Shown here in pieces: positions 46,723 to 50,322 of a DNA stretch of 64,000 nucleotides. Within the stretch, counting starts at the first letter, position 1. Each line of letters starts with the position of its first letter. The position numbers and the translations under genes are program-made. The stretch is from an uncultured Pseudomonadota bacterium (GTDB taxonomy: Bacteria > UBA10199 > JACPAL01 > GCA-016699445). The stretch covers positions 329,196 to 393,195 of the forward strand of contig CAZKQW010000001.1 in the NCBI GenBank assembly GCA_964555055.1, read 5' to 3'. The notes beneath the pieces were generated by a model. It worked only from the letters and a program-made list of their open reading frames with translations. It ran no database searches and was not told the origin of the DNA.

Positions 46723-48099
46723 TTAAGCTCTCCAGCTACTGATTTGCCTCAATTGCTCGAAACCGCGGCGTATGCCTTGTTCGGTGGACGTCTGCTCTTC
46801 CAAAGCGGACATCATGTCGCGTACCGCGTTCATGGCGGTCTGACGGTCGGCCGTAATCCCTTGGATGGAGTTGTTGACGCGCATCATCTCGGCTTGGTTA
46901 TTCGTGCCGCTCGTATTCCCGGAAAGGGCCTGTAATCGGTTATTTTGTTCTTCCATCCGTTGGTTGCTGGCCTGCATGGAATTTATCATCGCCACCGCCG
47001 CATTTCGCAAACTGGACTTACTGCGTAGGGTAAGCAGCGTCACGGCTTGTAGGATCGCGTCGATATTGCCCATCATGATCATAGATTTTAAGCGGTTGAT
47101 CTCGGCGTCCAAGCGACGCGAGCGGCTTCTCTCGTCGAGGGCTTGTCCGTAGAAGGTGTTCCCAAGCCCAAGCATGTCGAAACCGCCGCCGACGCTTCCC
47201 AAGGCCGTGCCGCAAGAAGCGGCACCCAGGAAGGGGCTATATGAGGTCATGACAGGATTGAAACTCGCTCCCATGAGTCCCGGCATGCCAAAGCCTCCGC
47301 CAAAAGCGCCGAGACCGGAAGCCGAATAGGAACTCCCGAAGGGCGTGGAAAGAGCGGAGACGTTATTGTTCGCACCCAAACTCGCGATAGCCGCGGCGTT
47401 CACGAGTCCGCCGAAGGCGTTTGCGAAGGGGTTGAGAACCGAGCCTATGATCTGAGCGGCTGGATGGGGAAGCTGCTGTTGCTGGGCCTCTCTCTGGCGA
47501 GCCTCTAAAGCGTCTTGGCGTTCTTCTCTACGCCTTTCCAACGCATCGGCACGTGCTTCGTGTCTTTCTTCCCGCTCTCGATCCAAACGCGCTTGATTGT
47601 TTTGCTGAGCAATGACGGGATCAGGCCCGTTACTCGGAGGACCTCCAGCAGGCGGCTGTTGGGTCGCAGGCGGCTGTTGGGTCGCAGGCGCCGGAGCCGA
47701 AGCCGCGGGAGCCGTCGTCGAGGCGGCCGCTTCTTGTCTCGCGTCCGTCACGGAAATATTTCTTCTAACGGTACGCGTACCAGCCGCAGTATTTTCCGTC
47801 ACTTGCACACGGGCCTGCGTACCAAGGGGAAGAGGATCCCCTGTCTCACCCGCTTCAGGGCTTCGCCTTAAAGCCTCGATAATTTCCCCAATATCCGCAT
47901 CCTGGAGCCTGCCATCATGAACGATATTCACATGACGCGTGACCGTCTGTCGATTCTGGCCATTTCCCGTAGTAACCGTGACTAAAGTTTGTTGAGGAGC
48001 TAAAGGAGCCGTCGCAGTTTGCAAAAGACCAAACCGACCGTTCATTGATGTGAATGTCGACTGCTTTTCATAACCCCAGAGATTCATCGTGCCTTCCAT
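46723..48099 (-). CDS. hypothetical 458-aa T3SS substrate candidate (has both the N-terminal LWG motif and the C-terminal module)
   Basis: GGAGGAG RBS. 'MNLWGYEKQSTF..LLQTATA' N-terminus. Gly-rich hydrophobic middle ('GLGAFGGGFGMPGLMGA'). C-terminal 'INRLKSMIMMGNIDAIL...GNTSGTNNQAEMMRVNNSI'. Confidence 0.6.
   Translation of the reverse strand: MEGTMNLWGYEKQSTFTSMNGRFGLLQTATAPLAPQQTLVTVTTGNGQNRQTVTRHVNIVHDGRLQDADIGEIIEALRRSPEAGETGDPLPLGTQARVQVTENTAAGTRTVRRNISVTDARQEAAASTTAPAASAPAPATQQPPATQQPPAGGPPSNGPDPVIAQQNNQARLDREREERHEARADALERRREERQDALEARQREAQQQQLPHPAAQIIGSVLNPFANAFGGLVNAAAIASLGANNNVSALSTPFGSSYSASGLGAFGGGFGMPGLMGASFNPVMTSYSPFLGAASCGTALGSVGGGFDMLGLGNTFYGQALDERSRSRRLDAEINRLKSMIMMGNIDAILQAVTLLTLRSKSSLRNAAVAMINSMQASNQRMEEQNNRLQALSGNTSGTNNQAEMMRVNNSIQGITADRQTAMNAVRDMMSALEEQTSTEQGIRRGFEQLRQISSWRA
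47648..47683 (-). repeat. perfect 18-bp tandem duplication inside the 458-aa ORF
   Basis: gcaggcggctgttgggtc occurs twice (47648-47665 and 47666-47683). It encodes 'ATQQPP-ATQQPP' in frame. Confidence 0.9.
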
Positions 48100-48177
48100 A
48101 AAAGCTCCTCCGTTTAACCTTTAGATGATATCGCAAAAGACCCACAATCCAAAGGGCTGTATCCTCAGAAAAGGTAG

Positions 48178-48193
48178 AGCAAAACGAGGGCCA
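48178..48193 (-). promoter_or_regulatory. candidate sigma-54 (-24/-12) promoter upstream of the 458-aa ORF
   Basis: The minus strand reads TGGCCCTCGTTTTGCT. GG and GC have the canonical spacing (TGGC-N7-TTGC). It lies about 80 nt upstream of the ATG at 48099, in an AT-rich 246-nt gap. Confidence 0.6.
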
Positions 48194-48220
48194 GAGTTCA
48201 GAAAAAGCGGCATGACTTTT

Positions 48221-48247
48221 AAATATATGAAATTACTTATATTTTTT
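48221..48247 (-). promoter_or_regulatory. AT-rich conserved box upstream of the sigma-54 promoter (copy 1)
   Basis: Plus strand aaatatatgaaattacttatatttttt matches 50396-50421 at 21 of 26 positions. It sits a similar distance (27 vs 24 nt) from the -24 element. Confidence 0.4.
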
Positions 48248-48345
48248 AGAAAATTGTGGCTTTTTTGAAAAAAAAGAAACGACCGAAAATTATCAGAATG
48301 GGGTTTTGATGCCACGGGGGTGGGACCTGAAGCTTTTTTGAGAGA

Positions 48346-49191
48346 TTAAACGCGACCAGAGCCCACATCGGATCTTAAGCGTGCCGTAGGTGAATGAGGG
48401 AGTACTTGATCCATTTCCGTCAAAATTTGATGGGGAGGTGTACGCATAGCGGTCACAAAAGCCATTTGATTCAATAGATTATCCTGACCTGAGCGCTGAA
48501 GCTGCAGCATGACCATCTGACTCATATCGGAAGCGCGCGCCGAGGCTTGGGCATACCCGGAAGCTACCATGGCTACGGCTTGATTGGCCTGTTCACGGGC
48601 CCGATTCGCCGCTTGCGCGGAAGCTGCACTTCCTAAAATAGCCAACTGCCCAATCGCCCCCGCCACTCCAGCGACAGGACCGGTTACCGCAGCGATGCCT
48701 TCAGCCACCGCGTTCGGGCGTTGGGTATTTCGAGACGGACTCGTATTAGCCGCGCTCTCCGGCGGAGCAGACCCTTCCCCAGCACTCGCTGTGCTAGTCC
48801 TCAAAGTCTCTTGCAGCTCTCTGAGACCTTGATACGCTCCCGCCTCTCCCGTGTTGCGGTCCCGGTACCACACACCCACCACATGCCCCACAGACTCCGG
48901 GTCATCGGGGTTGACATGGGCTTGACGTAAAACACCGCGCAAATCTTGGCCGTCTAAGCCCCGTGTATCGTTAAACTCATAATCGAAGCTCTCAACGCGC
49001 GTGTGTTGGCGCTGGTAGTTTTCTCTGACCCTTTCATCATTGGAAGTGCTGCCGCCATTCCGGCGCATAAAGGCATTATACTCTTCCAAAGTGGTATTCC
49101 CCGTAAGGACACGGACAACCGCGGTCGAAGTCTGCAAAAGCGCCTTGGGTTGGTGAAACATCCGCCTATTTTGAAATCCCCATAATTCCAT
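48346..49191 (-). CDS. hypothetical 281-aa T3SS substrate candidate (N-terminal LWG motif family)
   Basis: 'MELWGFQNRRMF..ALLQTSTA' N-terminus. One Gly/Ala-rich hydrophobic segment ('GIAAVTGPVAGVAGAIGQLAILG'). 12-nt gap to the upstream paralog. Confidence 0.55.
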   Translation of the reverse strand: MELWGFQNRRMFHQPKALLQTSTAVVRVLTGNTTLEEYNAFMRRNGGSTSNDERVRENYQRQHTRVESFDYEFNDTRGLDGQDLRGVLRQAHVNPDDPESVGHVVGVWYRDRNTGEAGAYQGLRELQETLRTSTASAGEGSAPPESAANTSPSRNTQRPNAVAEGIAAVTGPVAGVAGAIGQLAILGSAASAQAANRAREQANQAVAMVASGYAQASARASDMSQMVMLQLQRSGQDNLLNQMAFVTAMRTPPHQILTEMDQVLPHSPTARLRSDVGSGRV

Positions 49192-49203
49192 AAAATCCTT
49201 TCA

Positions 49204-50322
49204 TCACACGCGTGTGGACCTTCTTGGCACCCGACTCGAGCCCTGTGCACGGCTTACTTCCCCGTCAGAAGTCTCCCTGAGAGTGGCTGTCATCGCAGCC
49301 ACGGCTTCCGAGGGACTTGATGCCGAGGATGTTGATTGGGGTTGAAGCCGGTCTAAGAGAGCTATCAAAGCTTCATTTCCTTCAAGAGCGCCTTGAGACC
49401 GTAAATTTGCCAAGTAAACTTGAGTCACGGTCGCGGCGATCCCTTCAAAAGCGCGCCCAACCCCACCCAAAATAGAGCCCAAGATTTGGACCGTGGCAGA
49501 AGGTGGGGTATTTTGGGGAGTCTCCATAGAATCAGAAGAGGCCGTAGGACGCTCCCGCCGAGCTAAAGGCCGAGATGTTGGATCTGACGGAACCTCGGCT
49601 TCAGGCCCTGCCCCAGCTCTAAGAAGCGTCACGGGTGCGGGAGAGTGAGAAGCGGGCGACGCCTCGGAAGCCTCAACTCCAGAAGGACGAGAGGGGGCGG
49701 CCCCATCTGCAGGTCTCGATGGCTCAGGGGGAATATTCGTTGTGGGGGTCGGATCCGTAAATGGATTCACAGGGCGTGGTCCTCCTAAAGCCGCAAAGAG
49801 GCCCCGATTTCCTACCGCCTCCCTCGCTGAGACTACGGGCCTCGAAACGCTTGGAGCGGGAGATCTTCTCACCGGTCGAGCCGGGGGAACCGAGGGCGTT
49901 GAAGTCGGTTCGGCAGTAACTATCGGCGTCATCGAGGGAATCTGAGGCACCGGCGGCACGGGACGCGGCGGTGTGGCGGCGGGGGCTACGGGAGCAATAA
50001 CCCCACCATTAGAATTCAAGGAAGCACAGCCGGTTTCCCCGTGGGAGCCCAACCAATCATGATCCACGGAATACCAAATACGATCCACCATTTGTCCTTG
50101 CAAATGGCCTAATCTCCCTGCCCTTTCTATCAAGACATTTGCTTCTCGTTGGTCTAAGCCCGGACTTCGTGGCGTCCAGTCCGTAGGATAAGTCGGGACT
50201 TCAACGGTTTGAAACTCCCCTCGAGGTAAAGCAAAATGCACACGAGCAATCCCGGTTTGTAAACATTGATACCTCAGACCGCGATGTGCCTTATTTTTTT
50301 CTGCACCCCACAATTCCATCAT
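49204..50322 (-). CDS. hypothetical 372-aa Pro-rich T3SS substrate candidate (N-terminal LWG motif family)
   Basis: GAGGAGG RBS. 'MMELWGAEKNKAH..QCLQTGIA' N-terminus. Long Pro/Ser/Thr/Ala-rich centre. Hydrophobic 'VQILGSILGGVGRAFEGIAATV'. Confidence 0.55.
   Translation of the reverse strand: MMELWGAEKNKAHRGLRYQCLQTGIARVHFALPRGEFQTVEVPTYPTDWTPRSPGLDQREANVLIERAGRLGHLQGQMVDRIWYSVDHDWLGSHGETGCASLNSNGGVIAPVAPAATPPRPVPPVPQIPSMTPIVTAEPTSTPSVPPARPVRRSPAPSVSRPVVSAREAVGNRGLFAALGGPRPVNPFTDPTPTTNIPPEPSRPADGAAPSRPSGVEASEASPASHSPAPVTLLRAGAGPEAEVPSDPTSRPLARRERPTASSDSMETPQNTPPSATVQILGSILGGVGRAFEGIAATVTQVYLANLRSQGALEGNEALIALLDRLQPQSTSSASSPSEAVAAMTATLRETSDGEVSRAQGSSRVPRRSTRV

Follow-up and report, generated by a model that had tools for sequence, protein, structure and literature searches.

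In a 64,000-nucleotide stretch of contig CAZKQW010000001.1 (positions 329,196 to 393,195 of the forward strand; hereafter the window), which comes from an uncultured bacterium of the group UBA10199, three genes of a non-flagellar type III secretion system (T3SS) locus open with the same short bipartite peptide. These genes, named A372, B281 and C458 after the lengths of their products in residues, are real genes of that locus and encode an undescribed protein family of an uncultured, 'Deltaproteobacteria'-labelled lineage. We propose that the peptide may be a class-specific recognition peptide, that is, a tag for export or for binding a chaperone, on hydrophobic T3SS substrates that come as sigma-54-driven mosaic paralogues, and we put the probability of this sequence-based reading at about 0.5.

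Three genes open with one bipartite motif

The open reading frames (ORFs) that an earlier note on this DNA had listed are all present on the minus strand, exact to the nucleotide and with the N-termini quoted there: A372 at 49204..50322, B281 at 48346..49191 and C458 at 46723..48099. The motif covers residues 1-27 of A372 (MMELWGAEKNKAHRGLRYQCLQTGIAR, 50242..50322), 1-24 of B281 (MELWGFQNRRMFHQPKALLQTSTA, 49120..49191) and 1-31 of C458 (MEGTMNLWGYEKQSTFTSMNGRFGLLQTATA, 48007..48099), all on the minus strand, and each of the three N-termini fits M-x-[LM]-W-G-x-[EQ]-[KN] ... [LC]-L-Q-T. A six-frame scan of the 64-kb window with the pattern [LMIV]WG[FYASWHT][EQD][KNR] returned three matches, one near the start of each of these proteins, inside residues 1-7; by a rough composition-based estimate, about 0.2 matches would be expected by chance.

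B281 starts 12 nt past the stop codon of A372, and because of this short distance the two genes are probably co-transcribed. The gap between B281 and C458 measures 246 nt. The sigma-54 promoters that had been claimed for these genes were borne out: exact -24/-12 boxes of the form TGGC-N7-TTGCT occur twice in the whole window (0.36 expected), once upstream of A372 (TGGCCTTCTTTTTGCT, 50356..50371, minus strand) and once upstream of C458 (TGGCCCTCGTTTTGCT, 48178..48193, minus strand). Two or more such boxes were reached in 6 of 100 shuffles of the window. Additionally, the boxes are kept before orthologues in related loci, namely those of A372 in L003 and L005 and that of B281 in L004. Both promoters are likely activated by an FHA-domain enhancer-binding protein of the sigma-54 type, which is encoded divergently on the plus strand (41455..42858).

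It is worth stressing that the motif can be lost from gene calls. The public call of the B281 protein (P0003, 271 aa, on another contig of 462,631 bp) starts 10 codons later, at MFHQPK, and omits it, so automated annotation can hide this N-terminus.

Conservation of the motif in a wider family

The window is identical to Logan contigs from SRR12487045 and DRR685533. In a word-indexed search of 5.8 billion proteins we found few close relatives: two for C458 and one for B281. Syntenic A, B and C genes are present in the related loci L003, L004 and L005, the last of which belongs to a complete 2.75-Mb metagenome-assembled genome (CP064976.1, labelled 'Deltaproteobacteria bacterium') and was the one locus that a genome scan turned up. 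Orthologues of A372 were found in L003 and L005 and those of B281 in L003, L004 and L005 (=P0004), and all the A, B and C genes of the three loci begin with the motif, as MEMWGSE[KN], MQLWGFE[KN] or M(M/T)NLWGFEK.

Using a three-sequence profile of C458, we searched 1.84 billion representative proteins exhaustively with HMMER and obtained 39 matches at E<=1e-3, 19 of them at E<=1e-10. At least 15 full-length homologues, with only about 20-25% identity to C458, start with the motif. The N-terminus is therefore kept well beyond the window, both in the syntenic orthologues of three other loci and among distant homologues.

Two versions of the motif can be told apart. In the lineage of the window it reads M-x-[LM]-W-G-[FYAS]-[EQ]-[KN] ... 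G-x-F-G-L-L-Q-T, and in the wider family M[DEN][FL][WY]GFE-x-R-x(3-4)-PG-x-x-FGL[FL], the form with which most full-length members start. Judging from these alignments, the 'LWG ... LLQT' start seen in the window is a lineage variant of a bipartite family motif. A common definition consists of M-x-[LFM]-[WY]-G-[FYAS]-[EQD] and, 8-17 residues or fewer further on, either G-x-x-[FWY]-G-[LM]-[LF] or [LF]-L-Q-[TV]. It describes A372, B281, C458 and all their orthologues, and also the 15 or more distant homologues, L087 and L082, and two proteins of contig L028.

Over 18 aligned motif-bearing family members, mean pairwise identity reaches 67% in the first 8 residues of the motif and 52% over its full 24 residues. 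The C-terminal bundle follows at 31%, while the alpha/beta domain has 15% and the long-helix and hydrophobic parts have 13-18%. The W, G and E of the motif are nearly invariant in the alignment. This stretch of about 25 residues is the first and best-conserved part of the N-terminal module that the proteins share. In an AlphaFold2 (AF2) model of C458 it is predicted to be disordered, with a predicted local distance difference test score (pLDDT) below 50 over residues 1-29; in a model of the N-terminal domain alone the values are 46-59.

A hidden Markov model (HMM) of the module recovered members outside its training set (L004_B at 1.2e-5, L003_A at 3e-5 and L028_333aa at 7.3e-5, in a small database). 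In L003_B (weakly), L005_B, L087 and L028_848aa the match was confined to the motif. In the 848-aa protein of L028 the motif is followed by a transmembrane segment and an AAA ATPase domain (PF00004, 1.4e-8), and the second motif gene of that contig encodes 333 residues with a coiled-coil C-terminus. Both read MELWGFE-x(9-10)-ALLQMR, the ALLQMR half of which lay outside the search pattern.

The earlier note had described a shared N-terminus on variable bodies. This stands insofar as the motif alone is common to L003_B, L005_B and the 848-aa protein of L028, but not for A372, B281 and C458 themselves, which share a module of about 100 residues.

The 14-kb contig L028 (JGI1358J11329_10002561) carries four uncharacterised genes at 217-6169, encoding proteins of 848, 370 (with a Gly/Ala-rich hydrophobic C-terminus), 366 and 333 residues. 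No T3SS gene was found on this contig, and the four genes may form an island of effectors in an organism related to this one. In the metagenome scan with ATGGANYTNTGGGGNTTYGAR, only L028, L082 and L087 were relevant among the matches listed. Most of the others were rejected as chance or unrelated (NapC/NrfH-like proteins starting MEFWGFEGGPY..., internal MDLWGFEYK sites and short ORFs), an outcome foreseen from the information content of the pattern. A word-indexed search with a 46-column N-terminal alignment gave no match.

Mosaic architecture of A372, B281 and C458

Profile-profile comparison with hhalign revealed that the first ~120 residues of C458 align with those of A372 (123 aa of the latter) at 95.5% probability (E 1.5e-8), and the first ~98 with those of B281 at 88%. 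A372 and B281 have in common a C-terminal tail of about 65 residues (86%). A Gly/Ala-rich segment of the form AQ-I-GS-I-x-P-x-A..G recurs in all three. By these comparisons the proteins are mosaic paralogues, with an N-terminal module of about 100 residues and the Gly/Ala-rich segment in common, and the description of them as otherwise divergent has to be given up.

Downstream of the motif lies a small alpha/beta domain, which in C458 comprises residues ~36-127 (47719..47994, minus strand; beta-hairpin, helix, beta-hairpin, helix). Alignments and HMMs place it also in A372 and B281 and, loosely, in the wider family. Most of this domain was modelled at pLDDT 70-89 when it was predicted on its own.

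The Gly/Ala-rich segments, all on the minus strand, occupy residues ~212-245 of C458 (47365..47466, AAQIIGSVLNPFANAFGGLVNAAAIASLG...), where the segment is moderately hydrophobic and aligns with that of B281, residues ~161-194 of B281 (48610..48711) and residues ~277-305 of A372 (49408..49494, VQILGSILGGVGRAFEGIAATVTQVYLANL). In Kyte-Doolittle windows of 19 residues, B281 and C458 reach 1.3-1.6, whereas A372 always stays below 1.2. Linkers rich in Pro, Ser, Thr and Ala are present in the three proteins, and that of A372 is long, Pro-rich and placed between the N-terminal module and the Gly/Ala-rich segment. Of the hydrophobic Gly/Ala-rich and low-complexity regions that had been ascribed to each protein, both kinds are indeed found in all three, although the segment of A372 is less hydrophobic than those of B281 and C458.

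The C-termini differ. C458 ends in a three-helix bundle (residues 313-458, 46726..47163, minus strand) that is homologous to the C-terminus of D535, the product of the next gene (blastp 1e-13; family HMM 1.5e-27). A Gly-rich region followed by this bundle of about 145 residues, ending ...[YS]RW[AS], is present in C458 and D535 and not in A372 or B281. Members of the C458 family likewise share the Gly-rich region and a C-terminal helical domain, which ends ...YRWA, SRWA, SRFNV or ARWTA.

The AF2 model of C458, built from a 27-sequence alignment, has a mean pLDDT of 63.8. It predicts the alpha/beta domain at residues 37-127, a long helix at residues 161-208 (block means of 90-96 over 161-200), a low-confidence helix at 215-241, a disordered Gly-rich loop at ~242-311 and the three-helix bundle at 313-457 (pLDDT 71-89).

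As a separate observation, nearly all C-termini of the A and B type end in ...R-V. This holds for A372 (STRV, 49204-49221), B281 (48346-48363) and the orthologues in L003, L004 and L005, with the endings STRV, SGRV, TGRV and SSRV and the exceptions SVSV and ERA. Some of them fit the class I PDZ-ligand pattern S/T-x-V.

A translocator-like cassette

C458 is the first gene of a cassette whose further members, all on the minus strand, are D535 (cassette protein 2, 45113..46720), a TPR chaperone of the SycD/LcrH class II type (chaperone 1, 44382..45017), E285 (cassette protein 3, 43517..44374) and a second chaperone of the same type (chaperone 2, 42863..43471). The chaperones match TIGR02552 at 5.8e-23 and 1.7e-22, in both cases below the curated cut-off, and are 55-80% and 69-93% identical across loci, respectively. 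Taken together, the chaperones are 55-93% identical between loci and the presumed substrates 20-60%.

The surroundings of four distant family members were examined (L006/L007, L008, L129 and L131), and in each of them a C-like gene is followed by one for a D-like protein (~520-560 aa), a TPR chaperone gene, one for an E-like protein (~290-300 aa) and another TPR chaperone gene. Three of these cassettes (L006/L007, L008 and L131) come after sctRST and before the enhancer-binding protein and kinase known from the window, and that of L129 stands alone, apart from apparatus genes. Adjacency to a class II chaperone (SycD/LcrH/IpgC-type TPR) within a T3SS locus was found here, in a cassette kept in five other loci. 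The arrangement looks like a translocator operon. Genes of the A and B type are absent from L006/L007, L008, L129 and L131. Since the cassette is kept while these genes are missing in the distant loci, we regard C458 as a conserved core gene and A372 and B281 as lineage-specific additions.

D-like proteins have a different, semi-conserved N-terminus. E285 has a conserved N-proximal peptide of its own, LKIPDNVALQPQNVIPFLASQ. It is found in all E-like proteins as L-[KN]-I-P-D-x-V-A-L-[QRK]-P-[QE]-N-V-[IL]-P-F-L-A-[SN]-Q, at residues ~28-52 in E285, and is a candidate binding peptide for the adjacent TPR chaperone 2. The E-like genes lie at 13730-14596 in L005, 13434-14348 in L006, 13836-14714 in L008, 13694-14575 in L129 and 13902-14762 in L131, and their products are 32-57% identical between lineages and 85% identical between the window and L005.

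Further observations concern the stretch between sctT and the cassette, which looks like an insertion hotspot. In L008, three unrelated-looking genes between sctT and the C-like gene (4040-5287, 5409-6095 and 6195-6890) all end in G-P-D-[YF]-[IV]-F, and GPD[YF][IV]F is another shared C-terminal tag at the locus position that matches A372 and B281. A fourth gene of L008 (7004-8173) has a C-type C-terminal domain without the N-terminal motif. In L003, L005 and L008, toxin-antitoxin pairs of the VapBC/PIN kind have been inserted behind sctT. AAA_14/DUF4143 ATPase genes were observed in or beside the cassettes of L003 (8233-9678), L005 (8562-9727 and 15349-16536) and L131 (8581-9759), and also in L028 (7681-8829).

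How the motif may work

Four features make us read the peptide as a short linear recognition motif: its place at the very N-terminus, its predicted disorder, a conservation far above that of its surroundings and its occurrence on different bodies. The building plan would comprise the disordered bipartite peptide, in most members the small alpha/beta domain, a Pro/Ser/Thr/Ala-rich linker, the Gly/Ala-rich segment and a variable C-terminus. The peptide would act as a sequence-specific tag that brings hydrophobic substrates to the injectisome. For this it would either dock in the groove of a TPR chaperone, one of the two highly conserved ones of the cassette, or bind a conserved component of the export gate or sorting platform. 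The moderately hydrophobic segment would later insert into the target membrane. Secretion, the binding partner and membrane insertion are what we infer here from the genes, their promoters, paralogy, family, synteny, conservation, modularity and predicted disorder.

The moderate Kyte-Doolittle values of the Gly/Ala-rich segments are in line with a published rule: membrane proteins exported by T3SSs have transmembrane segments that remain slightly below the threshold for inner-membrane targeting, and chaperones shield them by binding the chaperone-binding domain and the transmembrane segment alike (PMC6110835).

Several points weigh against the proposal. Common descent of A372, B281 and C458 alone explains their similar starts, although not the far better conservation of the motif. 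D535 and E285, which are presumed substrates as well, do not have the motif, which can therefore serve as a signal for no more than one class of substrates. In L131 the C-like protein, encoded in an identical locus, lacks it despite keeping the alpha/beta domain, and the gene has no upstream in-frame start that could supply it; the motif is thus dispensable in at least one lineage. Hence the idea of a general secretion signal of the system has to be abandoned, given the cassette proteins D and E and the C-like protein of L131. The class II chaperone-binding consensus is P/VxLxxP, and it is absent from the first 150 residues of A372, B281, C458 and all members of the C family that were checked. 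It was found in three A/B orthologues only, at non-homologous positions.

Database searches belong on the same side of the balance. Pfam and NCBIfam scans of the A, B, C, D and E proteins gave nothing meaningful, and for the C-terminal domains nothing even at E<=10. Searches of PDB sequences, with single sequences and with profiles of 3 and 27 sequences, yielded only low-complexity and coiled-coil noise, and Foldseek comparisons of the full C458 model and the N-terminal domain model with the PDB returned no match at E<=0.001. Some individual matches were discarded: those to GltJ and DPC2 as low-complexity noise, and those to SSI-family protease inhibitors (sermetstatin, E 0.029, TM ~0.3), the best Foldseek matches of the N-terminal domain, because homology was not accepted. 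SipB 82-226 ranked 24th in Foldseek, with an E of 0.54.

The statement that no known effector or translocator family is recognisable holds for Pfam, NCBIfam and the PDB, but C458 does belong to a recognisable, unnamed family in a translocator-like position beside class II chaperones. According to Abby & Rocha, translocon and tip proteins were not found by homology in T3SSs of the Myxococcales type (PMC3459982).

Alternative explanations

A bolder version of our proposal, which we regard as tentative, holds that the peptide would be a true sequence-specific N-terminal export tag (M-D-F-W-G-F-E ... P-G-x-x-F-G-L-F) read directly by the apparatus or a chaperone, and that its spread to new bodies (A372, B281 and the AAA-ATPase protein) would point to a growing repertoire of effectors or translocators. 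It is somewhat unlikely that the motif is instead a merely inherited structural element, left over from a C-like ancestor that underwent duplication and recombination. Such an element might, for instance, be a strand packed against the alpha/beta domain, or it might bring about the oligomerisation of an assembled translocon or tip. The homology does span about 100-120 residues rather than 25, the tail common to A372 and B281 reveals mosaic paralogy, and modelling the domain alone raises the pLDDT of residues 1-10 slightly, to 59. However, the motif is conserved four times better than the adjoining domain and is found on other bodies without it, the domain persists without the motif in L131, and AF2 does not pack the one confidently onto the other. 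We also consider unlikely a role after export, in which the motif, unread by the secretion machine, would be a membrane-active, fusion-peptide-like leading end that emerges from the needle before the rest and starts insertion into the target membrane. Its richness in W, F, G and L (FWGFE ... GFGLF) at the extreme N-terminus would suit such a role, as would its predicted disorder in isolation, the Gly/Ala-rich hydrophobic segment of every carrier in the window and the place of C458 in a translocator-like cassette. Yet the versions in the lineage of the window are much more polar (MELWGFQNRRMFHQPK...), and the L131 protein manages without the motif. Besides, substitutions that preserve hydrophobicity are usually tolerated in membrane-active peptides, but the specific residues W, G and E of this motif are nearly invariant.

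That the three proteins are no substrates at all, but membrane-anchored accessory or regulatory parts of the producer's own T3SS, with the motif as a cytoplasmic docking site on the sorting platform, seems quite improbable. A hydrophobic segment in each protein and the location of the genes between the apparatus genes and the translocator-like cassette speak for it. On the other hand, A372 and B281 have no counterparts in the otherwise identical loci L006/L007 and L131 and are therefore not core parts, and motif genes also occur in the L028 island, far from any T3SS gene. Their long Pro-rich low-complexity linkers and fast divergence argue in the same direction, as both are typical of secreted substrates. 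Finally, it is scarcely credible that the conservation reflects a translational or mRNA signal across the start codon. The ribosome-binding site and TT[TC] before the ATG are also alike among the genes, but paralogues and orthologues use different synonymous codons for Leu, Gly and Glu of the motif (e.g., TTG, TTA, CTC, ATG; GGT, GGA) while the peptide stays constant, which argues for selection on the protein and not on an RNA element. No Rfam family matched anywhere in the window, and on these two grounds an RNA-level signal was rejected.

Comparison with known systems

In function, the nearest parallel to the proposed recognition peptide is found in the group of SifA, SseJ, SspH2 and SopD2 of Salmonella. 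Effectors of the second Salmonella pathogenicity island (SPI-2) carry a conserved N-terminal W(E/D)(K/R)xxxF at residues ~37-44 of a homologous domain of ~140 aa, and this motif is essential for translocation (PMC11050076). In both cases a short Trp motif lies in a conserved N-terminus, the C-terminal bodies differ and the carriers are paralogous in their N-terminal part. There is, however, no sequence relation, and a W[ED][KR]...F regular expression matched none of the family members. The motif described here starts at residues 1-7 instead of ~37-44, the T3SS lineage is very distant, and the carriers have hydrophobic segments, one of them being a core cassette gene.

Classical translocators and their chaperones (YopB/YopD-SycD, IpaB/IpaC-IpgC and PopB/PopD-PcrH) resemble the cassette in the adjoining SycD/LcrH-type chaperones, the long helices and the helical bundle and, as far as the Kyte-Doolittle values of B281 and C458 suggest, the moderately hydrophobic segments. 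The N-terminal peptide of hydrophobic translocators is expected to lie in the chaperone groove. Unlike them, the window proteins lack P/VxLxxP, and Pfam, NCBIfam, PDB sequence searches and Foldseek detected no homology to translocators. The operons differ too, as here the chaperone comes after the presumed substrates and there are two chaperones to three cassette proteins.

The gate-recognition motif FxxxPhi of early flagellar and T3SS substrates, which reportedly binds FlhB/SctU, is likewise a short, conserved, hydrophobic N-terminal linear motif of a substrate class, and the T3SS of the window also keeps flagellum-like features. Its sequence is different, though, and it is placed at about residues 30-40 of rod and hook proteins, which the carriers here are not. 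The MIX motif of type VI secretion system effectors is another conserved N-terminal marker of polymorphic secreted proteins with variable C-terminal parts. It belongs to another secretion system, has another sequence and is part of a folded domain, whereas the motif described here is at a disordered extreme N-terminus.

Neighbourhood of the locus

The vicinity to a T3SS that had been claimed was confirmed. The export-apparatus genes sctT, sctS and sctR (50476..52448, minus strand) lie directly upstream of A372, and farther upstream we found genes for FliO-like, separate FliN-like and FliM-like, SctP-like (with a FliK domain), SctO, SctN and SctL proteins, as well as a protein with a FliG_C domain, a sigma factor of the FliA type and SctJ. 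Past the cassette, on the opposite strand, the enhancer-binding protein with the FHA domain is accompanied by a PEGA-domain Ser/Thr kinase.

Several of the apparatus genes have flagellum-like traits. In a 295-aa protein (57615-58502, minus strand) a FliG_C domain exceeds the Pfam cut-off, FliM-like and FliN-like proteins are encoded by separate genes alongside a FliO-like gene (52435-54184, minus strand), and the ATPase (55635-56954, minus strand) passes the FliI-clade-2 and SctN cut-offs of NCBIfam alike. This non-flagellar T3SS with flagellum-like parts may be a member of an early-branching T3SS group. A literature search on T3SS in UBA10199 found nothing.

A Gly-rich protein of 190 residues (62304-62876, minus strand), without a Pfam match, ends in ...VSIARNFRA, and the next gene (61891-62301, minus strand) specifies a TPR protein of 136 residues, possibly a needle chaperone of the YscG kind. 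The ends ...IIQNWKQ of E285 and ...IARNFRA of the 190-aa protein resemble the ...IIQNFR end of the needle proteins MxiH/PrgI, a lead only. Neither protein had an HMM link to the C-terminal domain of C458 and D535. Elsewhere, the housekeeping part of the window contains a three-gene PrkA / DUF444 (YeaH) / SpoVR module (29063-33725, minus strand).

Significance

To our knowledge, T3SS secretion signals are without a consensus sequence, and for want of one neither the prediction of effectors nor the identity of the receptor that reads the signal has become certain. What we describe is a peptide of about 25 residues at the extreme N-terminus, with 50-70% identity on proteins that are otherwise 15-30% identical, and found also on unrelated bodies. 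If it is a tag, a regular expression could list the substrates encoded in these genomes, and the peptide would be a defined ligand for finding the receptor, be it the chaperone groove, SctU, SctV or the sorting platform. It would also show how a class of hydrophobic substrates avoids the Sec and signal recognition particle (SRP) route. Should the tag be read directly, no earlier type III secretion signal would have had so strong a consensus that the substrate repertoire can be defined from sequence alone and the receptor mapped. Additionally, the cassette of C458, D535, a chaperone, E285 and a second chaperone offers candidate translocon and tip components for a poorly known group of T3SSs in uncultured bacteria from groundwater and wastewater.

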